64,000 nucleotides of DNA, taken from positions 464 through 64,463 of the forward strand of contig CAZPJD010000225.1 of NCBI GenBank assembly GCA_964586775.1, in the 5' to 3' direction. Of this stretch, positions 4,785 to 22,755 are shown in pieces. Each line of letters starts with the position of its first letter. The first letter of the stretch is position 1. The notes under the pieces are model-generated. The model had not been told where the DNA came from, did not search any database, and saw only the letters and a program-made list of their open reading frames with translations. Position numbers and translations under genes: made by a program. The DNA comes from an uncultured bacterium (lineage in GTDB: Bacteria > Lernaellota > Lernaellaia > JACKCT01).

Positions 4785-5771
4785 CTACAAATCCAGCACC
4801 GTCTTAAAGTGCTCGTAGATCTTGCGGTTCGCGTACGATGGAAATCCGATCGAGGTGTAGTGCGTGAGCGGCATGAAGTGGACCGTGGGCTTGCCGTAGG
4901 TGTCGCGCGTTTTCAGCACGAGCTCGCGCGGGATGATGTCGTCGATCGCGCCGTTCACCATCACGAGCCGCGCGGGGTCGATGCGGTCGGCGTAGCGCGC
5001 GGGGTCAACGGGGCCAAAGGCCGGCTCCACCGCGGCGCGAAGCTGCGCGGGCGTGATGTTCTCGCGCTCCATCACCGCGTCGCGCAGCTTGTACACGCGT
5101 GAAAACCCGCTCTCGGCCACGATGTCGGACAGGTGCGCGCCGGTGACCAGAAACCCCGCCGCCTCGACACGCCCGTCGGATTCCATCGTCAGCGCGCCGA
5201 TGATGCCGCCGAGCGAAATGCCCATCACGGCCGTCTTGTTCTTGTCCACGTATGGCAGCGTGTCGAGGTAATCGATCGCCCGGCGCGCGTCGATCACCGC
5301 CTGCCGAATCTGCATGGCGCTGTATTCGAGCGGCTTGTCAGGCTTAAAAAACGTTTCGCGCCGACGCAGCGCGATGACCGTGAAACCGCGTTCGGCGAAA
5401 TACTCGGCGTAGGGTTTGACGATATCATAGGGACCGCCCGTCGGCGGCAGCAGCACCAGCGCGGGAGTCTGCTTGTTCTCGTCCTTGGGCGAATAGAAAA
5501 ACGCCTTCGCGTTCTTCTCCTTCATCTTCTCCATGTCGCGCGCGCGCCATTTGAGGCCGCGTTCGACGTATTTGCCGTGGTCCTTCGTCTTGCCATCGAT
5601 GACGGGCGCAATCGGGTTCGCGCGGTCGTAGGCGAACTCGGGAATCTCCTCGCGCGCGAGCGCCGGCGGCGACGCGGCCATCGTCCCCTCGAAGCGGTAC
5701 GTGGCGCATCCCGACGCGAGCGCGGCAACGGCGAGCGCGAAGACGAACGAAACTCCCGCAAGACGGCGCAT
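4785..5771 (-). CDS. Lipoprotein, alpha/beta-hydrolase fold (dienelactone hydrolase/esterase-like)
   Basis: N-terminal 'FALAVAALASGC' lipobox-like signal; GxSxG nucleophile elbow 'GISLGG'; 328 aa. Confidence 0.7.
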   Translation of the reverse strand: MRRLAGVSFVFALAVAALASGCATYRFEGTMAASPPALAREEIPEFAYDRANPIAPVIDGKTKDHGKYVERGLKWRARDMEKMKEKNAKAFFYSPKDENKQTPALVLLPPTGGPYDIVKPYAEYFAERGFTVIALRRRETFFKPDKPLEYSAMQIRQAVIDARRAIDYLDTLPYVDKNKTAVMGISLGGIIGALTMESDGRVEAAGFLVTGAHLSDIVAESGFSRVYKLRDAVMERENITPAQLRAAVEPAFGPVDPARYADRIDPARLVMVNGAIDDIIPRELVLKTRDTYGKPTVHFMPLTHYTSIGFPSYANRKIYEHFKTVLDL

Positions 5772-5921: not shown

Positions 5922-6725
5922 ATGGCGGTCATCTCGATCACCAATCAAAAGGGCGGTGTCGGCAAAACGACCACGGCGATCAACCTGGGCGCCGGGCTCG
6001 CCCGCAAGGGCCTGCGCGTGCTGATCGTCGATCTCGACGCCCAGTGCAACGCCACGCAGTTCCTGTACCGCCGACTCGAGGATGACGAGCCGGGCGTGTG
6101 CGAGGCGCTGCTCGAGGAACGCCCCCTCGCAAAGATCGTCGTGAAGACCAATGTGGAGGGCCTCGATCTCGCCCCCGCCGGCGAAAGTCTCGCCAACGCC
6201 GATCTCAACCTCGCGAGCCTGATGGGGCGCGAGCGCTACCTGGCGAATCTGCTGGAAGACAAGACCCTGCGCGCGTACGACCACATCCTCATCGACACCG
6301 GCCCCTATCTGGGGCTGCTCACCATCAACGCCTTCGTCGCCTCCGACGCGCTGATCGTGCCGGTGAGCTGCGAATATCTGCCGCTCCTCGGGCTCAAGTT
6401 CCTGCTCGAAACCGTGGACAAGGTGAAACGCAAGCTGCACCCCGATCTCGAGATCCTGGGATTCCTGCTGACCATGGTGGACCGGCGCGAAAAAATCACG
6501 GGCGAGGTCGAGCAGGTGATGGCGAGCCGGTTCGGGGATCGGTTGTTTCAGACCCGGATTCGGATTAATACCAAGCACAAGAGCGCGCCGCACGCCCGGG
6601 AGACGATCTTCCAGTATGAGGGTTCAGCCTCGGGGAAAGGGACGCAGGATTTTGCGGCCCTGACCGAAGAGGTGCTCGCGCGTCTCGATGGAGGCAAGAC
6701 CCGTCATGGCCAAAAAGCCCGGTAG
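5922..6725 (+). CDS. parA: ParA/MinD-family P-loop ATPase (orphan ParA)
   Basis: Deviant Walker A 'NQKGGVGKTTTAINLG'; 267 aa; typical ParA length and motifs. Confidence 0.85.
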   Translation: MAVISITNQKGGVGKTTTAINLGAGLARKGLRVLIVDLDAQCNATQFLYRRLEDDEPGVCEALLEERPLAKIVVKTNVEGLDLAPAGESLANADLNLASLMGRERYLANLLEDKTLRAYDHILIDTGPYLGLLTINAFVASDALIVPVSCEYLPLLGLKFLLETVDKVKRKLHPDLEILGFLLTMVDRREKITGEVEQVMASRFGDRLFQTRIRINTKHKSAPHARETIFQYEGSASGKGTQDFAALTEEVLARLDGGKTRHGQKAR

Positions 6726-7438: not shown

Positions 7439-9781
7439 ATGACGGATCGCGAAGCGCATTCCGATTCCCCGGCCCGTCGCGCCCCGCGCGCGTTCGGGGT
7501 GTGGTGCGTCGCGACGGGCGTCCTCACCGCGGTACAGCTCGCGCTGCCACTCGTCGGCGTGCCCGGTTACGAGGCCGCCCAAATCCAGACGATCTGGTTC
7601 GCCGTCGCCGCGGGTCACATCGCCATCGCGTGGGCAAGGCATCGCTCGAACACGCCCCTGCTCGCGACCGCCGCGACCGCCGCGCTGGCGACCGCGCTCG
7701 TCTGGCTGGCGTGCGTCGCGGCGCTGTTCGGCGCGGGATTCGCGCGCGGCGCATGCGACGCATCGCGCGACGTGTGGTGGTTTCTCATTCTGCCCGGCCC
7801 GGCCATTGCGCTGGGCGCGGCGTGGGGCGCGTTTCTGGCATCGCTCGGGCTTTCCGGTCGCCGAACGCACCTCGCTTATGTCGCCGTCGTCGCCGTCCAT
7901 CTCGCGTGGGAGCTCGCCGGCATCCGCACGCAGCCGATGACCTTTTCCTACAACGCGCTCCTCGGCTACTTCCCGGGACCGGTGTACGACCGCGCGGTGC
8001 GCATCGGCGCGACGCTTGCCGCCTCACGCGCGCTCGGCCTTTCCGAGGCGACGGCGCTCTTCGCACTGGCGGCCCTCGTCGAAGGAAAGCGCGGGCGAAA
8101 AGCCCTCGCCGCCGCGCCGGTTGCGTCGTTCGCGGCAGGTTTCGTCGCGGCGGTCGCGCTCGCGATCGTCGGACCGACCCTCGACGCCTCGACCGATCGC
8201 GCGAAGATCGACGCCACCCTCGGCGCGATTGCCCGCGGGCCGAACGTGACGATGCACTTCCCCGAGGATACGCCGCCGGACGAGGCGCGGCTGTTGCTCA
8301 TCGACCTCGAGCACCGGTTTACGCGCCAGGCGCGGTGGCTCGGCCTCGCCGAGCCCGAGCCCGTCGATGCGTACTACTACCGCTCGGCCCGCGAAAAGAA
8401 GCGGCTGACCGGCGCGGGCGACACGCAGTGGGCGAGTTGCTGGAACCGCGAGATGCACATGACGATCGAGCGGCCGCCGCACTCGGTTCTCAAGCACGAG
8501 GTCGTGCACGTGCTGGCCGAGCCGTGGGGAATTCCGGGGCTGGGGTTCTCGCGCGTGCTCGGCCTCACCGAAGGGCTCGCCGTCGCGTCCGAGGTCTGGC
8601 GCGAGGACTGGACGATCCCGTATTGGGCCGCCGCGATGAAATCCGTCGGCCGTCTGCCCGATCTCGCCGACATCTCGGGGCCCACGGGCTTCTGGCGACT
8701 TTCCGGCACACGCAGCTACCTCGCGTGGGGCGGGTTCCTCACGTGGCTGCGCGAGCGTCATTCGAACGACGCCATTGCGCGCGTGTATCGCACGGGCGAC
8801 TTTCGCGAGGCGTTCGGCAAGAGCCTTCGCGAGCTGGTGGACGAGTGGGAATCGTCGCTCGATGCGATTCGGGTCCCGCCCGATCTCCTCCGCGTCGCGG
8901 CGTATCGATTCTTCCGACCGTCTCTCTTCGAGGGCCGCTGCGCGCGAACCGTCGGCACGCTGGAAGAAGACGGCGCACGGGCGCTCGACGCGGGGCGCGC
9001 GCAAAAGTCGGTGCGTCTTTTCGCCGATGCGCTCGAACTTTCCGGCGGCGATTCGCGCAACCGGCGCGACTTCATGGCGGCCCTCGTGTCGGCGCGGAGA
9101 CTCGACCAGGCCGAGCGCGAGGCCGCAGAAATCTTCGCCGCGGAGGGCGCGGAGTTTTTCGCGACGCCCGAGCCTGGCAAGCCCGTTCACGGCAATCTGC
9201 TCGCGGCGACGCAGGCCCGGCTCACGCAGGCCGCCCTCGCGTGGCGTCGCGGAGATCGCGAATCCGCGCGGCGGTTTTACGAAGACGTGCGCGCATTCGG
9301 TGTGGGCGACGCGAATCGACGCGAGGCAATCGTGGCGCTTGACGCGCTCGGTTCCGCCGCGATCGAGCCGATGATTCGCCGCTATCTGGTGGAGCCCGAT
9401 GCCGAGGGCGCGCGTTGGCACGATCTGCACGCGGCGCTGGATGCCCGGCCCGATGACGCGGTGGCGCGTTACCTGCTCGGGCGCAGGCTCTACGGCGCGC
9501 GACGGTTTGACGACGCGGTGACGCACCTCGATGCCGCGCTCACGCTCGGTTTGCCGGACGACGCGCTGACGCGCGAGGCGTGGCGCACGCTGGGCCGCGC
9601 ACACTACGAGGCCGGGCGATTCGAGGACGCGGCGGTGGTGTTCACCGAGCGCCGACCCGCGAGTCTGTCGGAGGGTGCGCGCAAAGACGCCGACGAGTGG
9701 ATCGACCGCTGCCTGTTCGCCGCGACGTTCCCCGAAACCGTTTCGATCGAAAACGTCGGTGGAATGGGCGACGACGACTGA
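7439..9781 (+). CDS. Polytopic membrane protein with HExxH zincin-like motif and C-terminal TPR-like helical repeats
   Basis: ~6 N-terminal TM helices; 'VLKHEVVHVLAEPWG' (HExxH); C-terminal Ala/Arg/Leu-rich repeat region consistent with TPR; 780 aa. Confidence 0.6.
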   Translation: MTDREAHSDSPARRAPRAFGVWCVATGVLTAVQLALPLVGVPGYEAAQIQTIWFAVAAGHIAIAWARHRSNTPLLATAATAALATALVWLACVAALFGAGFARGACDASRDVWWFLILPGPAIALGAAWGAFLASLGLSGRRTHLAYVAVVAVHLAWELAGIRTQPMTFSYNALLGYFPGPVYDRAVRIGATLAASRALGLSEATALFALAALVEGKRGRKALAAAPVASFAAGFVAAVALAIVGPTLDASTDRAKIDATLGAIARGPNVTMHFPEDTPPDEARLLLIDLEHRFTRQARWLGLAEPEPVDAYYYRSAREKKRLTGAGDTQWASCWNREMHMTIERPPHSVLKHEVVHVLAEPWGIPGLGFSRVLGLTEGLAVASEVWREDWTIPYWAAAMKSVGRLPDLADISGPTGFWRLSGTRSYLAWGGFLTWLRERHSNDAIARVYRTGDFREAFGKSLRELVDEWESSLDAIRVPPDLLRVAAYRFFRPSLFEGRCARTVGTLEEDGARALDAGRAQKSVRLFADALELSGGDSRNRRDFMAALVSARRLDQAEREAAEIFAAEGAEFFATPEPGKPVHGNLLAATQARLTQAALAWRRGDRESARRFYEDVRAFGVGDANRREAIVALDALGSAAIEPMIRRYLVEPDAEGARWHDLHAALDARPDDAVARYLLGRRLYGARRFDDAVTHLDAALTLGLPDDALTREAWRTLGRAHYEAGRFEDAAVVFTERRPASLSEGARKDADEWIDRCLFAATFPETVSIENVGGMGDDD

Positions 9782-9830
9782 CGGTTCGCCCCTTGCCGCC
9801 GCGCGGCCCGTTCGATAACGTCCGAGACGC

Positions 9831-11189
9831 ATGACGACCGAACTGTCGATCGCCCGCGCGCGTGCCCGCGCCATCTGGCTCATCGCGGCGAGCCTCGCGT
9901 TCTTCGCTTGGATCTCGCCCGCGTTCGCGTTGCTGTTCGCCTTTACGACGCTCGTCGATCGCGCCCTCGCCCGCGCCGCCGCGCGCGAACATTCGCGGTG
10001 GATCGCCGCGGGCGCGAGCGCCCTCATGAACCTCGGCGCGATCCTCGCCTTGCACAACCTGCACCGATTCGCCGACGCCCTCGCGGCATGGCCCTCGCTG
10101 ATGGGCTCGGCGCTCAATGAGGGCGGCACCATCGCGGTGCTGCCGATCGGCTGGTCGCTGCTCTTCGCGCAAAACCTCGCCCATGTTCTGGATGTGGCGC
10201 GCGGGCGCGGGCAACCGACCGAGTGCATCCTCGAGCACGCGCTCGCCGCCGTGTTCTTCCCGCGCATGTGGGCGGGGCCGATGGTCGAACCCGTCGCGTT
10301 TGCCGCGCGAATTCGTCGGCCCGAGCGCCTCACCGGCGAACGCCTCGGCCGCGCGATCTGGCACGGCGCGCTGGGCGCGATCAAGATCGTCGCCGTCGCC
10401 GACTACCTCGCGCTCAACATGGTGGACAAGGTCTTCGATCTGCCCACGCTTTTCTCCACAACCGAGGTGGTTTTCGCGCTGGTCGCGAACGCGCTCGTCA
10501 TCGCCGCGATGTGGTCGGGCGCGTGCGACATCGCCGTCGCCGCCGGACTCGTGCTCGGCTTCGACCTGCCGCAAAGTTTCGCGTCGCCCGCCACGGCGAC
10601 GGGTCCGCGCGACCACTGGCGTCGGTTCCTCGCGCCGCTCACGGCCGCGCTTCGCGAGCACGTTTTCCGCCCGCTCGCGGGCGGGCCGAATGCTTCGCGC
10701 CTGCGCCGTGCACTCGCCGCGTTTGCGCCGCCGCTGCTGGTCGGCTGCGTCGTGGGGCCGAGCGAAACCACGCTCGCCTTCGGCGCGTTTGTCGGCGCGA
10801 CGCTGTTCGTCGCGACGCTCTTCGGACGCAAGACCTCGAACGACAAGCCGGGCATCGGCGCGCGCGCGTTCGGATGGGTTCTCACTTTCCTCGCCATGAC
10901 GGTCGCGTGGACGCTCTGGCGTGCGCACGACCTGCAAACCGTTTCCGATCTCGCGTCGATCCTGCCGCTCGGCATCTACGAAACGCCGAACCTGACCGCA
11001 ACCGTGATCGGCGTTTTTTTCGCGTCCCAGGTGGTCGCGTTCGTGCCCGCGCCATGGGTCGCGAAAACCCGCGATGCATTCGCACGTGCGCCCTGGCCCG
11101 TACAGGTCGCGGCGGGGCTCGCGGTGGCGTGGGCGCTTTGGCGCGTGAACGCGGTGTCGGAAGTGCCCTTCGTCTACGAGCGGATGTGA
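9831..11189 (+). CDS. MBOAT-family membrane-bound O-acyltransferase (AlgI/DltB/PatA-like)
   Basis: Multi-TM 452 aa; conserved MBOAT block 'PRDHWRRFLAPLTAALREHVFRPLAGG' with the catalytic His. Confidence 0.8.
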   Translation: MTTELSIARARARAIWLIAASLAFFAWISPAFALLFAFTTLVDRALARAAAREHSRWIAAGASALMNLGAILALHNLHRFADALAAWPSLMGSALNEGGTIAVLPIGWSLLFAQNLAHVLDVARGRGQPTECILEHALAAVFFPRMWAGPMVEPVAFAARIRRPERLTGERLGRAIWHGALGAIKIVAVADYLALNMVDKVFDLPTLFSTTEVVFALVANALVIAAMWSGACDIAVAAGLVLGFDLPQSFASPATATGPRDHWRRFLAPLTAALREHVFRPLAGGPNASRLRRALAAFAPPLLVGCVVGPSETTLAFGAFVGATLFVATLFGRKTSNDKPGIGARAFGWVLTFLAMTVAWTLWRAHDLQTVSDLASILPLGIYETPNLTATVIGVFFASQVVAFVPAPWVAKTRDAFARAPWPVQVAAGLAVAWALWRVNAVSEVPFVYERM

Positions 11190-17044: not shown

Positions 17045-19249
17045 ATGGTGTCGAAAAACGCGGTCGCTTCGGCGAAAAACGTGCTGAAGAACGTGCTCAC
17101 GATCGAGCGACGCGACGGCGGCGTCGCCCTCGTCTGGTTCGACGATCCCGACGACGTCGTCAACAAGCTCTCGACCAGGGTGCTTGGTGAGTTCAACGCC
17201 GTGATGGACGAGCTGGAGGCCGACGTGGCCGTCAAGGCCGTGGTGTGGATCTCGCGCAAACCCGACTGCTTCATCGCGGGGGCCGACATCGCGGAGATCC
17301 AGACGTTTTCCACCGCGGCCGACGCCGAGCGCATCAGCCGCACCGGCCATGCTGGTTTTGCGCGTATCGAAAAGAGCAAGAAGATTCACATCGCGTGCGT
17401 GTGCGGCGCGGCGCTGGGCGGCGGCACCGAGTTCGCCCTCGCCTGCCACTACCGCATCGCCGCCGATGCGCCGAAGACGATGTTCGGCCTGCCCGAGGTC
17501 AAGCTCGGTCTGTTGCCCGGCGGCGGCCGCACGCAGCGCCTTCCCCACGTGGTTGGCCTCGAGGCCGCGCTCGACCTGATGCTCACCGGCAAAAACGTCT
17601 TCGCGAAAAAGGCGCTCAAGATGCGCCTGGTGCACGAGGTCGTCTCGCCGTGGGGCCTGCCCGAGACGGCGGTCAAGGCTGCGGCGCGCCTCATCAAGGA
17701 CGGCATCCCGACGGGCAAGACCGACCCCGACTGGAAAGAGAAGATCAAGCAGGACGTCGGCCCCGCGCGCAACCTGATCCTCAAGACCGCGCTCGAAATG
17801 GTCGAACGAAAGACGTACGGCAACTACCCCGCGCCGGGGCACATCATCCGCGCGGTGCGCGCCGGGCTCGAAACGCCGGGCGAAAAGGGCTACGCGGCGG
17901 AGGCGAAGCTCTTTTCCGAGCTCGTCGTCACGCCGCAGTCCCGCCAGCTCGTGAACCTGTTCTTCGCGATGACCTCGAAAAAGAAGAGCGCGCTCGCGGC
18001 CAAGGCCGCGCCGGTGCGTCATCTGGGCGTGCTCGGCGCGGGGCTCATGGGCTCGGGCATCGCGCTCGTGTCGTCGGAGCAGGCCGAGACGCCGGTGTGC
18101 GTGAAGGACATCAGCCCCGACGCGCTCGCGGCAAGCCAGAAGTACGTGTTCCGCGCGATGGACGAAAAATTCCGCAAGCGCGCGATCAACCGCCGCGTGC
18201 GCGACCGGGTGGTCGCGCGGGTACACGGCGTGCTCGATTACGACGCCCTCGGCCGCTGCGATCTCGTCGTCGAAGCCGTCTTCGAGGACATCAAGATCAA
18301 GCACCAGGTGCTGCGCGAGGTCGAGGCCGTCACGCGCCGCGACTGCGTCTTCGCGTCGAACACGTCGGCGCTGCCCATCACGCAGATCGCCGCGGCCTCG
18401 AAGCGGCCCGAAAACGTGCTGGGCATGCACTACTTCTCGCCGGTCGAGAAGATGCCGCTGCTCGAGGTGATCCGCACCGAAAGAACGAGCGAGAGGGCGC
18501 TCGCCACCGCCGTCGCCTTCGGCATGAAACAGGGCAAGACGGTGATCGTCGTTCAGGACGGCCCGGGCTTTTACACCACACGCATCCTCGCGCCTTACAT
18601 GAACGAAACGTGCCTGCTGCTCGCCGAGGGCGCGACGATCCCCGATCTCGACCGCGCCATGCTCGCGTGGGGATTCCCCGTCGGGCCCGCGGCGCTCTTC
18701 GACGAGGTGGGCATCGACGTGGCGGCGCACGTGGCGGGGTTTTTGGGCGAGGCGCTGGCCAAAATCCACGGTCCCACGCCGACCAGCGACGGCATGATCA
18801 AGCTCGCCGCCGCCGGATACAAAGGACGCAAGAACAAGAAGGGCTTCTACCGCTACGACGCCGCGCCCGCGTCGCGCCTGCCGCTGGGGCTGGGCAAAAA
18901 GAAGGGCAAGCTGCCGAACGAGGCCGTGTACGCATTCTTCGGCGATCGGCCGCGCAAGACCGTGAGCGCCGCCGAGATTTCGGACCGGCTCGGCCTGGTG
19001 ATGGTGAACGAGGCGGCGTCGTGCCTGCAGGAAAAGGTGATCGAGACGCCGCAGGACGGCGACCTCGGCGCGATCCTGGGCCTCGGGTTCCCGCCGTTTC
19101 GCGGCGGGCCGTTCCGTTATGTTGACGAGCTCGGCGTGGCGAAGGTGGTGGAAAAACTCGAGCGCCTCGCCGACGCGCACGGTGCGCAGTTCGCGCCCGC
19201 GAAGATTCTGGTCGAATACGCCAAGAAGGGGCGGACGTTTTACAAATAA
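17045..19249 (+). CDS. fadJ: Fatty-acid oxidation complex alpha subunit (enoyl-CoA hydratase / 3-hydroxyacyl-CoA dehydrogenase, FadJ/FadB-like)
   Basis: 734 aa; N-terminal crotonase domain and C-terminal NAD-binding 'LGVLGAGLMGSGIA' 3-HCDH domain; 12 bp after the thiolase gene. Confidence 0.85.
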   Translation: MVSKNAVASAKNVLKNVLTIERRDGGVALVWFDDPDDVVNKLSTRVLGEFNAVMDELEADVAVKAVVWISRKPDCFIAGADIAEIQTFSTAADAERISRTGHAGFARIEKSKKIHIACVCGAALGGGTEFALACHYRIAADAPKTMFGLPEVKLGLLPGGGRTQRLPHVVGLEAALDLMLTGKNVFAKKALKMRLVHEVVSPWGLPETAVKAAARLIKDGIPTGKTDPDWKEKIKQDVGPARNLILKTALEMVERKTYGNYPAPGHIIRAVRAGLETPGEKGYAAEAKLFSELVVTPQSRQLVNLFFAMTSKKKSALAAKAAPVRHLGVLGAGLMGSGIALVSSEQAETPVCVKDISPDALAASQKYVFRAMDEKFRKRAINRRVRDRVVARVHGVLDYDALGRCDLVVEAVFEDIKIKHQVLREVEAVTRRDCVFASNTSALPITQIAAASKRPENVLGMHYFSPVEKMPLLEVIRTERTSERALATAVAFGMKQGKTVIVVQDGPGFYTTRILAPYMNETCLLLAEGATIPDLDRAMLAWGFPVGPAALFDEVGIDVAAHVAGFLGEALAKIHGPTPTSDGMIKLAAAGYKGRKNKKGFYRYDAAPASRLPLGLGKKKGKLPNEAVYAFFGDRPRKTVSAAEISDRLGLVMVNEAASCLQEKVIETPQDGDLGAILGLGFPPFRGGPFRYVDELGVAKVVEKLERLADAHGAQFAPAKILVEYAKKGRTFYK

Positions 19250-19400
19250 CGCGAACGCACCAGCAAACGCGCTTGCCAACGCGTCCCCGCGTGCGCACCA
19301 TCGGCCCGACGGGAAGCGGGAGCCGGGACTCCCCGCGGGCTGCAAACTCGCCGGGAACGCCGGGCAGGCGTTCCGTTCGGTTCGACTCCGAATCCCGTCT

Positions 19401-19570
19401 GTGCGGAACCCTCGCAGGTCATGTGGCACAGCCGCCCCCGGCGGTGCGGAACCTTTGCGGGTCATGTGGCACAGCCGCCCCCGCGGTGCGGAACCTTTGC
19501 GGGTCATGTGGCACAGCTGCCCCCCGGCTGTGCGGAACTCTTGCGGGTCATTTGGCACAGCCGCCCCCGG
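19401..19570 (+). repeat. Four tandem REP-like repeats (~43 bp unit: GTGCGGAACCTTTGCGGGTCATGTGGCACAGCCGCCCCCG)
   Basis: Near-identical units with 1-3 substitutions, contiguous and head-to-tail, immediately upstream of the RAYT gene; no unique spacers, so not CRISPR. Confidence 0.7.
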
Positions 19571-19588
19571 CTGTGTAAAACTCCGTTC

Positions 19589-20089
19589 ATGTCGCAACGT
19601 GAACCCAAAGCCCGATACCGGAGAAACCTTCCGCACATACAGGCTGCCGGAAAGACATTCTTCATCACGTTTCGAACGCGCCGGGATGTCGAATTGCCCG
19701 GGGACGCTCGCTCGCTGGTGCTTCAGCATTGTCTGTACGATCACGGGCGGCGCTACGAACTGATCGCCGCCGTGGTGATGCCGGATCACGTGCATCTCCT
19801 GCTCACGCCGAGACTCGAAGACGCGCTCGCCCCGTTCAGACTCGCCGCCCTCATGTCGGGAATCAAAGGATCGTCGGCACATTCCGTGAACAAAGCCATG
19901 GGACGACGCGGCCCATTGTGGCAGGACGAATCATTCGACCATGTCCTGCGTTCTGACGAAGATGCGCGTCAGGTCGGGGAATACATTTCGCTCAACCCGG
20001 TGCGCAAGGGGCTCGCCGAAACGCCCGAAGGGTATCCATGGCTTTGGCGGCGGTGGGTGGAGGGAGAAAGAGTCCAGCAGGGGCCATGA
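19589..20089 (+). CDS. REP-associated tyrosine transposase (RAYT, IS200/IS605 TnpA-like)
   Basis: 166 aa; 'YRRNLPH', HUH motif 'PDHVHLLLTP', C-terminal Tyr region 'GYPWLWRRW'; flanked by REPs. Confidence 0.8.
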   Translation: MSQREPKARYRRNLPHIQAAGKTFFITFRTRRDVELPGDARSLVLQHCLYDHGRRYELIAAVVMPDHVHLLLTPRLEDALAPFRLAALMSGIKGSSAHSVNKAMGRRGPLWQDESFDHVLRSDEDARQVGEYISLNPVRKGLAETPEGYPWLWRRWVEGERVQQGP

Positions 20090-20097
20090 GGCAAGAG

Positions 20098-20210
20098 CAC
20101 AGCCGGGGGCGGCTGTGCCACATGTCCCGCTAGGGTCCTTGCCTTTGAATGTGGAACAGGCGCCCTCGCCTGTTCGGCACTCGCACAGCCGGGGGCGACT
20201 GTGCCACATG
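20098..20210 (-). repeat. Two inverted copies of the REP core (CACAGCCGGGGGCGGCTGTGCCACATG) downstream of RAYT
   Basis: Reverse complement of the upstream REP core 'CATGTGGCACAGCCGCCCCCGGCTG' at ~20098-20124 and ~20183-20210. Confidence 0.65.
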
Positions 20211-20220
20211 ATCTTGTTCC

Positions 20221-22560
20221 TCAGATCTCGTACCAGCAGCCGTCGGCGGCGGTCATGAAGGCGTCGTCGTCGCTGTCGAGCTCGCCGGACTGATCGAGGT
20301 CCGCGCCATCGCACCAGCTATTGCCGGCGTCGCACGACGCACCCTCACCGAAGTTCGTCCACGCCGTGTCGAAGTCGGCCTGATCGTCGGCGTCCACATC
20401 GCCGTCGCCGTCGAGGTCGGGCCGCTCGCAACCCAGAACCGCCCACGAGCAGTCGAGCACGGTGGGTTCCATCGCGCAGTTGGGGATCTCGTTCAGATAG
20501 ATCGCCCCGCCGAAGCCCTGGTGCGTGATGTTGGGAATCTCCTCCCAGTCGCCGTCGACGTTGACGACCTCGTAATGATCGCCGTTGCGCTTGATCGGCT
20601 TGTCGGCCTCGGTGGGGAAGCGGTCCCAATAGCGGTCGTAGGTTTCCGGCCGATCGGCGTAGCCGTTCACCTCGGCGAGGATCTGGCTCCACAAATCCGC
20701 GTCGCTCCACAGCGCGCGCGGCGTGCTGTCGCCGCGATTCAGCACGTCCTCGAACACATCCTGATAGCGCTCGGCGCGCACCCAGCCCTGCGGGTCGTAA
20801 TCGGCGTTGCCCACGCCCGCGATGTGCGCGTACTGGGCGACCTTCTGGAGTTCCTCGATCGCCTCGTTCACGTAATTCGATGGCGGCACGGGCTGCGCCT
20901 GCGCCCAGTCGAGCGTGAGCTGCGCGCTGATGCGGTGCAGCTCGGTGATGTGGAAGAGCGCCTCGCGCGCCTCCTGCAGCAGATCGCCCTTGTTGGCGAG
21001 CTGCGCGTAATACACCAGCGCGAAGGCGGCCATCTCGGGCTGGTCGGTCGCGTCGGCGATCTGCATCAGGATGTCGGCCACGCTCGACCCGCCCAGGTTG
21101 ACGGCGATGCGCATGAGGTCTTCGAGCGACTGGCCGAGGATGTTGAGGTTGTAAATGTCGCCCCAGCCGAGGCCGATGTAGGCGTCATCCATGTTTTCGC
21201 AGGTCTTCGTCAGGTTGCCGGGAACCGGGATGCCCAGCGCCTCGAGCAGCATCTTGATCGCGATGATCTCATACGACCCCGGCGTCTCGACGGGCTCCGT
21301 GGGCGAGGTCAGGCCGTCCGCCGACATCGCCTTGGCCATGTACGACATCTGGCAGGAATTCATCGAGCCGAGCCACTCGGGGCCCTCATCCGCGCCGTCG
21401 GGGCGGATTTCGCCGGCGACGATCAGGTGGTCCTCGTCATAGGGCTCGAACTCGCCCACCGTCATCAGGTTGTAGCCCTCGCCGATGGTGCGATCGCCGA
21501 TGCGCTGCCCGGCGGCCCACGCGCGCTCGGCCGAGGCGCGCACGTCGGCGTCGGCGCCGGCGTCGTTCATCGCCTCGAGCGCGGCGAAGTAGCCCACGCC
21601 GAAATCGGGGAAGTTGTCGCGGCTGTTGTGATTGCCCCAGAAGTAGCCCTCGAAGGGCCCGAGCTGGCTGATCATGTACGACGAGCAGCAGTTCGAGATG
21701 CGCAGGTAGTAGGGCATCTCCTCGAAGACGAATGTCACGGCGTAGTCGCCGGGGCGCAGGATCGACTCGATGCGGAAGTAGTGGTCCGTCGGTTCGCCGT
21801 TGATGGCATACACACCATCGGAGAAGAACGCGTTGATGATCTCTTCTTCGAGCGTGGGCGAGTAGTCCTCGGCGGGGTCGATGGGCGCGCCGTCCAGCGT
21901 GCGCGTCACGGTGCCGCCGGGGCCGTCGATGGTGACGGTAAATCCGGTCTGCCACTCGCGGCAGGTGAGACCGTCGATGCCCTGGATTTCCTCGGCGTAG
22001 GCGAGGCCCTCGAACTGGCGGATCGCGGTGAGGGCCAGTTCGCGCGTGCGGAAGATCTTGTAGGCCTGATACGCGTTGAAGGCTGAGAAGCCGATCCAGT
22101 TGTTGTCCACCGGGTGGAGCTGGACTTCGTAGTCGCTGCCGTCCTTGGCGATGTTCGTGTGGCCCAGCGTGTGCGCGGGCACCACGTCGCCGACGAGCAT
22201 GAAGCGGTTGTACGCCTTGAGCGTGCGGCCGATGCGCTCCTTGTAATAGAGCTTGAAGGCGTCGGCCTTCGTGGTCGGATTCACCCACGGATCGAAGGGG
22301 ATGTCGTCGTCGGCGTCGTCGTCCGTCGTATCGTCGTCGGTCGTGTCGTCATCCGAGGTGTCGTCGTCGCCGGTGTCGTCATCCGGCAGCGGGGGGAACG
22401 TGTCGTCGTCGCCCGTGTCGTCGTCCGCGGCGTCGTCATCCGCCGCGTCGTCGTCCGGGGTGATCGTCGTCGGCCCGGAATCGTCGTCGTCATCGCCGCC
22501 GCACCCCGCGACAAACGCCAGAGCCATCACCACCGCCACCGCCCAACCCCACCTGTTCAT
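20221..22560 (-). CDS. Lipoprotein with N-terminal (DDDx)n acidic repeat tether and C-terminal dockerin/EF-hand-like double Ca-binding motif
   Basis: GGGAGA RBS; 'MNRWGWAVAVVMALAFVAGC' lipobox then 'GGDDDDDSGPTTITPDDDAADDDAADDDTGDDD...DDDTTDDDADDD'; C-terminus 'DLDGDGDVDADDQADF...DLDQSGELDSDDDAF'. Confidence 0.7.
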   Translation of the reverse strand: MNRWGWAVAVVMALAFVAGCGGDDDDDSGPTTITPDDDAADDDAADDDTGDDDTFPPLPDDDTGDDDTSDDDTTDDDTTDDDADDDIPFDPWVNPTTKADAFKLYYKERIGRTLKAYNRFMLVGDVVPAHTLGHTNIAKDGSDYEVQLHPVDNNWIGFSAFNAYQAYKIFRTRELALTAIRQFEGLAYAEEIQGIDGLTCREWQTGFTVTIDGPGGTVTRTLDGAPIDPAEDYSPTLEEEIINAFFSDGVYAINGEPTDHYFRIESILRPGDYAVTFVFEEMPYYLRISNCCSSYMISQLGPFEGYFWGNHNSRDNFPDFGVGYFAALEAMNDAGADADVRASAERAWAAGQRIGDRTIGEGYNLMTVGEFEPYDEDHLIVAGEIRPDGADEGPEWLGSMNSCQMSYMAKAMSADGLTSPTEPVETPGSYEIIAIKMLLEALGIPVPGNLTKTCENMDDAYIGLGWGDIYNLNILGQSLEDLMRIAVNLGGSSVADILMQIADATDQPEMAAFALVYYAQLANKGDLLQEAREALFHITELHRISAQLTLDWAQAQPVPPSNYVNEAIEELQKVAQYAHIAGVGNADYDPQGWVRAERYQDVFEDVLNRGDSTPRALWSDADLWSQILAEVNGYADRPETYDRYWDRFPTEADKPIKRNGDHYEVVNVDGDWEEIPNITHQGFGGAIYLNEIPNCAMEPTVLDCSWAVLGCERPDLDGDGDVDADDQADFDTAWTNFGEGASCDAGNSWCDGADLDQSGELDSDDDAFMTAADGCWYEI

Positions 22561-22755
22561 CGCATGTCTCCCGGTACCGAGTCCTTGAGGGATCGACATG
22601 CTACCAGAGTCGCGTCCCGCGCCCAAGGGTCGGTCGGCACACGCCCCAATCCGCTCCTAATGTCCCGCACGCCACGAACAAACCGATCGGTTCTGGATAT
22701 TCTTGTCCGGATAGGGCTCAATGACATCCCTTAGTGATTTTCATTACACGTCGAT

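Follow-up and report, generated by a model that had tools for sequence, protein, structure and literature searches.

The 64-kb window analysed here is a stretch of 64,000 nucleotides on contig CAZPJD010000225.1 of an uncultured bacterium. It contains a small transposase gene bordered on both sides by short hairpin repeats, and the locus is very probably a REPtron: a resident, vertically inherited single-stranded DNA (ssDNA) transposase of the HUH/Y1 type, that is, a REP-associated tyrosine transposase (RAYT, or TnpA-REP), together with clusters of its cognate repetitive extragenic palindromes (REPs). The RAYT has ceased to be a self-copying insertion sequence (IS); it remains at a single syntenic position, where purifying selection acts on it. 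The original prediction, made from the letters of the DNA, described a complete REP-RAYT unit, and every testable feature of a REPtron agrees with it: the protein model, the fold, the residues, the GTGG-headed hairpins and the inverted flanks. As an ordinary REP-RAYT unit the locus is only modestly interesting; its extras are a cross-phylum REP core, independent tandem arrays and an unusual tRNA alongside.

The identity of the enzyme is established by several lines of comparison. The open reading frame (ORF) that had been singled out for its YRRNLPH segment, HVHLL HUH motif and C-terminal Tyr is confirmed; its translation contains Y10-RRNLPH16, PDHVHLLL with H67-V-H69-LL, and EYISLNPV with Y132-ISLNP. 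The protein scores 95.4 bits against a cut-off of 80 with the NCBIfam model NF047646 REP_Tyr_transpos ("REP-associated tyrosine transposase"), and only 19.4 bits, below the cut-off of 55, with the IS200 equivalog model NF033573; Pfam Y1_Tnp is matched as well. The closest solved structure by sequence is 4ER8 (E=2e-7), the Escherichia coli TnpA-REP bound to a REP hairpin, and in that alignment HVH lies opposite HMH and YISLNPV opposite YIYINPV. An AlphaFold2 model of the RAYT (predicted local distance difference test, pLDDT, 87; predicted template-modelling score, pTM, 0.83) has 4er8_A as its top fold match in the PDB (E=3.8e-7, template-modelling (TM) score 0.63, root-mean-square deviation (rmsd) 3.0 Å, 140 columns), with the IS200, ISDra2 and IS608 TnpA structures ranking behind it.

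The residues expected of such an enzyme are in place. In alignments with 17 and 37 homologues, with the E. coli protein compared, H67, H69, Y132, N136, P137, W111 and R121 never vary, and Q112 and D117 hardly do; the HUH/Tyr residues, whose absence on alignment had been named as grounds for abandoning the prediction, are thus present, and the catalytic and REP-contact residues are all intact. W111, Q112, D117, H118 and R121 occupy the columns of the residues that contact the GT[AG]G head in E. coli. The GTAG-head contacts of the E. coli protein are W94, Q95, E100 (D in some subclasses), H101 and R104 (Quentin et al.; PMC6006769), and the signature of class-2 TnpA-Y1 proteins is Y---NP (PMC6006769). 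H67/H69, Y132-N136-P137 and W111/Q112/D117/H118/R121 therefore match both the class-2 signature and the published list of GTAG contacts.

Where does the gene start? In the public annotation the protein (P0002) has 131 amino acids and begins at TTG 19694 (19694-20089), which removes 35 conserved N-terminal residues, among them the YRRNLPH/beta-1 segment and the invariant R12, L14, H16 and T27. The correct start should be ATG 19589, as in the orthologue P0001 described below. Two further ORFs, beginning at 19273 and 19421, had been dismissed as translations of the repeats, rightly so: the first (19273-19578) overlaps the tRNA and the repeat array, and the second (19421-20089) is the RAYT frame read back through the REPs, an upstream extension that the orthologue lacks. 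The possibility that the upstream REP is itself part of the coding frame was also considered, as many homologue ORFs start with the REP-encoded peptide VAQPPPAV. It was rejected because the window has another frame (WHSRPRLC) and because the ATG used by the orthologue lies downstream of the REP. For annotation, the gain is a corrected RAYT start, the removal of two spurious repeat-derived ORFs and an explanation of the repeats.

The main REP consists of an (A)TGTGG head followed by CACAGCCG-CCCC-CGGCTGTG, which gives a perfect GC-rich stem of 8-9 bp closed by a 4-nt loop; the GTGG of the head sits 0 nt from the foot of the stem, and the loop consensus across REP types is CCCY. With at most one mismatch, the 27-mer CATGTGGCACAGCCGCCCCCGGCTGTG matches four sites in the window, 19420-19446(+), 19549-19575(+), 20098-20124(-) and 20184-20210(-), and none in 100 dinucleotide shuffles of the window. 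When folded as ssDNA, the best REP copies reach -11.9 to -14 kcal/mol, with z about -2.6 to -2.9 relative to shuffles. The published REP descriptor (PMC6006769) requires a stem of 7 bp or more without unpaired bases, a loop of 2-5 nt, and a GT[AG]G separated from the stem by 0-2 nt. The copy at 20098-20124(-) and a variant, REP', at 20149-20175(+) agree fully with its head, stem-length and loop terms, and the remaining copies each carry one defect against it.

REPs flank the RAYT in inverted orientation within 130 nt, with arms of 33-40 nt that are 90-93% complementary; the (+) REPs end 13 nt 5' of the gene and the (-) REPs begin 9 nt 3' of it. Upstream, the four contiguous ~43-bp REP units of the original prediction are borne out. 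Tandem Repeats Finder reports an array with a period of 43, 4.2 copies and 89% matches, and a repeat search places four copies in register at spacings of 43/42/44 nt, all four of them imperfect. Units 2 and 3 fall outside the 27-mer matches and were identified by alignment. The expectation that the hairpin folds held only in part: unit 4 (-11.9 kcal/mol, z -2.58) and the downstream copies do fold, whereas the hairpins of units 1-3 are no better than shuffles.

Downstream of the gene, two inverted REPs had been predicted. Both (-) copies are real, and a third REP, the (+) REP', had been overlooked, so that the cluster reads -,+,-. The homology of the 20098-20124 copy to an upstream unit extends, inverted, over 20097-20136 (40 nt, 90%). 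The stem of REP' differs from that of the main REP at two positions, each of them compensated on the opposite arm. REP' and the next (-) REP fold together into a long hairpin resembling a REPIN (a REP doublet forming a hairpin), and the downstream spacer as a whole (20090-20215, 126 nt) folds at -41.6 kcal/mol with z -6.35. The last REP and the stop codon of the convergent gene are 10 nt apart. This -,+,- cluster is a group of the REPIN or bacterial interspersed mosaic element (BIME) type. The BIME-like architecture first proposed for the unit thus applies to the downstream cluster only; the upstream array is a direct tandem and does not alternate.

Table 1. Positions in the window of the REPtron components and of the neighbouring genes.
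Feature	Position	Strand	Description
Direct tandem array	19394..19575	+	Four ~43-bp units, each spacer GCGGAACCYYTGCGGGTC + REP; Tandem Repeats Finder
REP unit 1	19420..19446	+	CATGTGG head, one stem mismatch (CGGCgGTG)
REP unit 2	19463..19488	+	GTGG intact, 1-nt deletion in 3' arm
REP unit 3	19505..19532	+	GTGG intact, C>T in 5' arm (T.G pair), extra loop C
REP unit 4, RAYT-proximal	19549..19575	+	Perfect 8-9 bp stem, CCCC loop, head GTGG->TTGG
RAYT / TnpA-REP gene	19589..20089	+	166 amino acids, ATG 19589 to stop ending 20089
Perfect REP	20098..20124	-	Exact 27-mer CATGTGGCACAGCCGCCCCCGGCTGTG; -14 kcal/mol, z -2.85
REP' variant	20149..20175	+	ATGTGG + (G)AACAGGCG-CCCT-CGCCTGTT(C); z -2.72 alone
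REP with one stem change (CACAGtCG)	20184..20210	-	z -2.85
tRNA	19308..19400	+	tRNA-Sec-like architecture, Cys anticodon GCA, discriminator U; neighbour and left boundary, outside the REPtron
Convergent gene	20221..22626	-	801 amino acids; downstream neighbour of the RAYT

Is the RAYT a long-standing resident of this locus or a recent arrival? A sister RAYT, P0001, with 81% amino-acid and 79% nucleotide identity, is found on JADLEX010000124.1 of GCA_020845895.1 (locus L001), a metagenome-assembled genome (MAG) labelled Deltaproteobacteria. It is placed syntenically, with the same fadJ-like gene and tRNA on one side and the same large convergent gene (781 amino acids) on the other, and it starts at the ATG equivalent to 19589. 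Between the window and L001, the ratio of nonsynonymous to synonymous divergence (dN/dS) is 0.15 for the RAYT (dS 0.82), 0.15 for the fadJ-like gene (dS 0.46) and 0.08 for the downstream gene (dS 0.52). A syntenic orthologue and a dN/dS of 0.15 point to a vertically inherited, selected and long-resident gene rather than to an active IS. According to Bertels et al. 2017 (PMC5581495), domesticated RAYTs are characterised by low copy number, vertical inheritance and housekeeping-like selection; here, there is one copy in 64 kb, a syntenic orthologue, and a dN/dS equal to that of the fadJ-like neighbour.

The repeats of the two lineages have partly been conserved and partly reshaped. Upstream of its RAYT, L001 has a direct tandem array with three units of 42 bp, and a full hairpin is present only in the unit next to the gene; downstream it has two inverted REPs. 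The boundaries of the tandem units differ between the window and L001, which suggests that the arrays expanded independently in the two lineages. The 27-nt REP core is identical in both, in the midst of intergenic DNA that is not alignable and next to genes whose synonymous sites differ by 34-50%; REP' is found in the window and is absent from L001. An identical core amid diverged DNA and a REP' confined to the window both speak for REPs that are being maintained and continue to turn over.

L001 also differs from the window in its larger organisation. Between the tRNA and the REP array it holds about 1.7 kb (8160-9860) without counterpart at window 19400/19401. A GH79-like gene (8250-9815) lies in this stretch, as does a 33-nt pseudo 3' end (…AADGCWYEV*), a second copy of the end of the 781-amino-acid gene that forms a 25-nt direct repeat with it (88%, 9835-9859 / 10610-10634). 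The breakpoint of the rearrangement is the edge of the REP array, and in L001 the short duplication brackets the whole REPtron. The two genomes together offer a snapshot of REP turnover at a fixed RAYT, with independent expansions, one REP gained and a 1.7-kb rearrangement that ends exactly at the array.

Several observations weigh against the locus being a working REPtron of the usual kind. Outside 19420-20210, no REP copy was found in the 64-kb window by scans for the pattern with 3 mismatches, for head plus hairpin and for loop-anchored hairpins, nor did 20.5 kb of the sister genome at L001 show any beyond the REPtron there. That this organism has a dispersed REP population is therefore unproven, and such a population would be sparse, at roughly fewer than one copy per 20 kb, which is a weak bound. 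Each of the four upstream REPs has a fault in its head or its stem. With only two G/C, the four bases at the foot of the stem, CACA, fail one filter of the RNAMotif descriptor; they pass its G+C rule only when the final G of GTGG is taken to form the first pair of the stem (with C). Finally, the dS of the RAYT exceeds that of both its neighbours, which leaves a little room for some non-vertical, more complex history. When the window was searched for any GT[AG]G followed by a perfect hairpin, 2 hits were obtained, as compared with 2.6 +/- 1.8 in shuffles; the generic descriptor alone is thus not significant here, and only the specific REP sequence is.

The lack of dispersed copies and the damage to the upstream REPs could mean that the REPtron is a relic, in which the RAYT has been kept, perhaps for some other host function, the REP population is near extinction and the flanking repeats are decaying leftovers that provide no handle on the rest of the genome, contrary to the hope of the original prediction. 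Such a view would account for the empty ~84 kb (64 kb + 20 kb) and for a set of damaged upstream REPs of which three fold no better than shuffles. It sits poorly, however, with the purifying selection on a RAYT whose catalytic and REP-contact residues are intact, and with two downstream REPs that are perfect and a core that has stayed identical in the sister genome despite the divergence of neighbouring synonymous sites. Moreover, REP', with its compensated stem, arose after the split from L001, and a donor copy elsewhere in the genome would be its simplest source. A relic is for these reasons unlikely, and we favour a REPtron that still maintains its REPs.

Does the same REP occur in other genomes? 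A 17-mer, CATGTGGCACAGCCGCC, which runs from the head through the 5' arm to the second base of the loop, was scanned against a collection of species-representative genomes, and the matches listed cover at least 119 loci, at least 129 sites and at least 71 assemblies; the sites were chosen by the 17-mer, and taxon labels are those of the deposited MAGs. Among the matches listed, 104 of 129 sites, in 50 of 71 assemblies, run on into the complementary 3' arm, which the query had left out, and the loop is CCCT at 66 of the listed sites and CCCC at 20. Most of the listed assemblies belong to Planctomycetota and Acidobacteriota, and others to Chloroflexia, Sumerlaeota (a single dispersed hit), Hydrogenedentota and further groups. 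Single MAGs carry listed REP sites on up to 9-11 different contigs, and a RAYT is encoded at only 2 of the 119 listed loci (117 are without one), so the REP is dispersed in those genomes.

The same REP is also found at the flanks of RAYT homologues, in L003, L108, L121, L122 and L123. A Phycisphaerales RAYT locus has a dozen copies of the core at its flanks, some in a run at 32-bp spacing, and one more with an unrelated stem; a Dehalococcoidia RAYT locus has at least one copy, and at a Hydrogenedentota RAYT locus there is a REPIN on either side. Hexapeptides translated from the REP core are present in 54 of the best 120 homologue ORFs, typically VAQPP[PS]AV close to the N-terminal end and TAEGGCAT at the C-terminal end; REP peptides at both ends of the ORF imply the same REP(+)-gene-REP(-) layout as in the window. 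In one Planctomycetota MAG (CAYLQD01), L003 (622-1328) and L108 (605-1330) hold REP-RAYT-REP units that are 90% identical over 727 bp in unrelated flanks, which represents either a diverged duplication of the whole REPtron or two strains in one bin.

Variants and tandem runs of the repeat were encountered as well. In Planctomycetota, direct tandem arrays or evenly spaced runs occur in L053 (467-631), L115 (~6028-6067), L121 (2790-2886) and L067 (~4930-4977), with periods of 37, 39 and 32 bp, and 15-nt partial REP units (CATGTGGCACAGCCG repeated) are also arrayed there, away from any RAYT. Tandem amplification is thus a recurrent habit of the REP family. RAYT homologues of 52-54% identity are found at a WOR-3 locus (L125; 1-160, 675-940), with a different REP, GTAG-CGTACCCTC…GGGTGCG, and in a 'Pseudomonadota' MAG (L126, 3499-3585), with variants that have a GTAG head but an unchanged inner stem and loop, CCGCCG-CCCY-CGGCGG. 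The REPs of these two loci are natural specificity variants of the same enzyme clade.

A metagenome scan with the lineage-specific 20-mer GCGGGTCATGTGGCACAGCC returned six contigs (L127-L132), in all of which the match falls inside coding sequence: in L127-L129, L131 and L132 it reads PRVMWHSR.AG in frame, apparently as one conserved protein motif, and in L130 it has an unrelated context. There is no REP hairpin and no RAYT on these six contigs, and coincidental coding matches of this kind can contaminate REP searches that use this core. Collections of plasmids and phages held only distant RAYTs (at most 43% identity) or none, so that no vehicle for horizontal spread has been identified.

Could the locus instead be an autonomous IS200/IS605-type insertion sequence that carries subterminal hairpins and is still copying itself? 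The protein matches Pfam Y1_Tnp and has the IS200, ISDra2 and IS608 TnpA as its next-best structures, hairpins stand at both ends of the gene, and the upstream REPs and REP', all on the (+) strand, supply the same-strand pair that an IS200-type element would need; the Planctomycetota MAG with its two REPtron copies can be read in the same way. By contrast, the protein passes the RAYT model and fails that of IS200, its Tyr motif is the class-2 Y---NP and not Y---Q, and the window contains neither a tnpB nor a second RAYT copy. The syntenic orthologue and its low dN/dS speak for long residence and not for recent insertion. The well-formed flanking repeats are inverted, other genomes carry dispersed copies of this repeat that are not accompanied by the gene, and no close relative was found in the plasmid and phage collections. 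Taken together, there is very little chance that this is a live insertion sequence.

Another possibility is that the hairpins are mainly regulatory elements of the host, serving the tRNA as a terminator or processing barrier and the convergent genes as a bidirectional terminator or messenger RNA (mRNA) stabiliser, with the transposase being incidental. The array directly follows the tRNA, starting 1-3 nt from its 3' end, the 130 nt between the convergent genes are taken up by the downstream cluster, and secondary roles of this sort are known for REPs (PMC3733652). Yet a scan detected no terminator-like site (hairpin plus T-run) at any REP, all three terminator-like hits being at other positions, and no sigma-70 promoter-like site anywhere in 19200-20300; in Rfam, no RNA family explains the repeats, the sole relevant match being the adjoining tRNA. 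The same sequence lies beside RAYT homologues in loci that bear other phylum labels and within nearly half of the best homologue ORFs, and such recurrence next to homologous genes is not expected of a locus-specific regulator. In addition, the conserved GTGG head and CCCY loop are the features that TnpA-REP proteins read (PMC8266576). A mainly regulatory role is accordingly improbable, and the repeats are better regarded as the cognate REPs of the RAYT.

REP families are usually pictured as lineage-specific partners of vertically inherited RAYTs. The comparisons above raise another possibility, on which we would not wager and which we put forward tentatively, that one REP, (A)TGTGG-CACAGCCG-CCCY-CGGCTGTG, travels with one RAYT clade (50-60% amino-acid identity) across at least five phylum labels. 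The labels that share the REP and the RAYT clade are Planctomycetota, Acidobacteriota, Chloroflexota (Chloroflexia and Dehalococcoidia), Hydrogenedentota and the 'Deltaproteobacteria' lineage of the window, and the REP often forms direct tandem arrays, the period of which (32-43 bp) depends on the lineage. If true, this would mean either spread of whole REPtrons between phyla or an unusually rigid recognition code between protein and hairpin, and the pair would be a natural system in which to study the encoding of REP specificity. A 27-nt perfect hairpin and a 166-amino-acid enzyme would then make a compact model for REP recognition and spread outside Proteobacteria.

How might such a locus work? 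By analogy with the TnpA-REP proteins of E. coli, Stenotrophomonas and Marinomonas, the hairpin would fold when the REP strand becomes single-stranded, for example on the lagging-strand template. The RAYT would then bind the stem-loop and its GTGG head through the conserved W-Q...D-H..R patch and cut nearby through Tyr132, the HUH histidines holding the metal; rejoining of the strands by the RAYT could lead to REPs and REP doublets being copied, moved or rearranged. The cleavage site and the strand preference would likewise follow those known systems. The conserved CCCY loop fits the finding for group 3 that loop bases are critical in short perfect REPs (PMC8266576). More speculatively, the upstream array may have been produced by local duplication of REP plus spacer through slippage or unequal exchange at hairpins, perhaps aided by nicking by the RAYT. 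Such duplication would have happened independently in the two sister lineages, and the downstream cluster would have gained one REP of a different subfamily, REP', after they split.

The tRNA that forms the left boundary had been overlooked in the original prediction. It is 93 nt long, with a long variable arm and extended acceptor and anticodon stems; its score with Rfam RF01852 (tRNA-Sec) is 44.6 bits (E=1.9e-7), the gathering score being 47, and ARAGORN calls it tRNA-Cys(gca). Its orthologue in L001 (8066-8157) reaches 48 bits and shows a compensatory change in the acceptor stem. These features fit the selC*-type class of tRNA-Cys, a class described by Mukai et al. 2017 (PMC5389517). What comes after the tRNA is the REP array and not a selB*/cysS* gene. 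On the other side, the 801-amino-acid convergent protein has an N-terminal Asp/Thr-rich low-complexity tract and C-terminal Asp-rich repeats resembling Ca-binding ones; it is 92% identical between the window and L001, where the orthologue has no Pfam hit on record.

How does the locus compare with systems that are already known? The REP core string was found neither in searchable full texts of the literature nor in supplements of two REP census papers, figures not being searchable, and the only matches to it were unrelated primers; such absence is no proof of novelty. A GTGG head in place of GTAG has been reported earlier, for GTAG-20 of Opitutus terrae (PMC3733652) and for the 'marginal' subclass 2.2 arcs a-c (PMC6006769); the REP sequences of these families are published as figures.

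The TnpA of the IS200/IS605 family (IS608, ISDra2) has the same fold and chemistry as the RAYT and recognises subterminal ssDNA hairpins with a 5' guide tetranucleotide. The family differs in its Y---Q motif, in being multicopy and self-mobilising, often with tnpB, and in having end hairpins on the same strand, whereas the RAYT of the window scores below the cut-off of the IS200 model. The E. coli REPtron (TnpA-REP / RayT YafM with REP/BIME; 4ER8) is the best match in sequence and fold. It has in common with the window the HUH + Y---NP Y1 core, the W-Q, (E/D)-H and R residues that contact the head, and a single gene between inverted REPs. However, identity between the two proteins is only 26-28%, and E100 is replaced by D in the window. 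The REPs of E. coli are long palindromes, imperfect and bulged, whose head is strictly GTAG, unlike the short perfect stem of 8-9 bp, the 4-nt loop and the GTGG of the window, and they form alternating BIMEs where the upstream REPs of the window form a direct tandem array.

In the form of its repeats, the locus resembles group 3 / subclass 2.5 (Stenotrophomonas maltophilia, Marinomonas MWYL1, Pseudomonas), which likewise has short perfect-palindrome REPs. In group 3 REPs, loop bases matter and the head tolerates change (PMC8266576). The proteins of this group and the RAYT are also alike in the WQ motif, in having D for E100 and in a length of about 150-166 amino acids. Compared by motif, DH[LF]H / YI[VI]ANP of subclass 2.5 stand against DHVH / YISLNP of the window (clade consensus YIC[QE]NP). 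The taxa differ too: Xanthomonads and Pseudomonads in the one case, and in the other a 'Deltaproteobacteria'-labelled MAG with mostly Planctomycetota/Acidobacteriota relatives.

Among the published subclasses, 2.2 has the motifs DHLH, WE and YIHYNP and 2.5 has DH[LF]H, WQ and YI[VI]ANP (PMC6006769). Subclass 2.7 (Quentin et al. 2018) is the closest by its motifs [ND]HVH, WQ and YI[LR][NQ]NP, and it shares the low copy number and GT[AG]G-headed REPs. By contrast, it is mainly cyanobacterial, has 'long' REPs and a median protein length of 213 amino acids, and differs from the window at positions 3 and 4 of the Y motif. Thus, in a comparison of motifs, the combination of DHVH, WQ and YISLNP in the window fits no published subclass exactly and is nearest to subclass 2.7.

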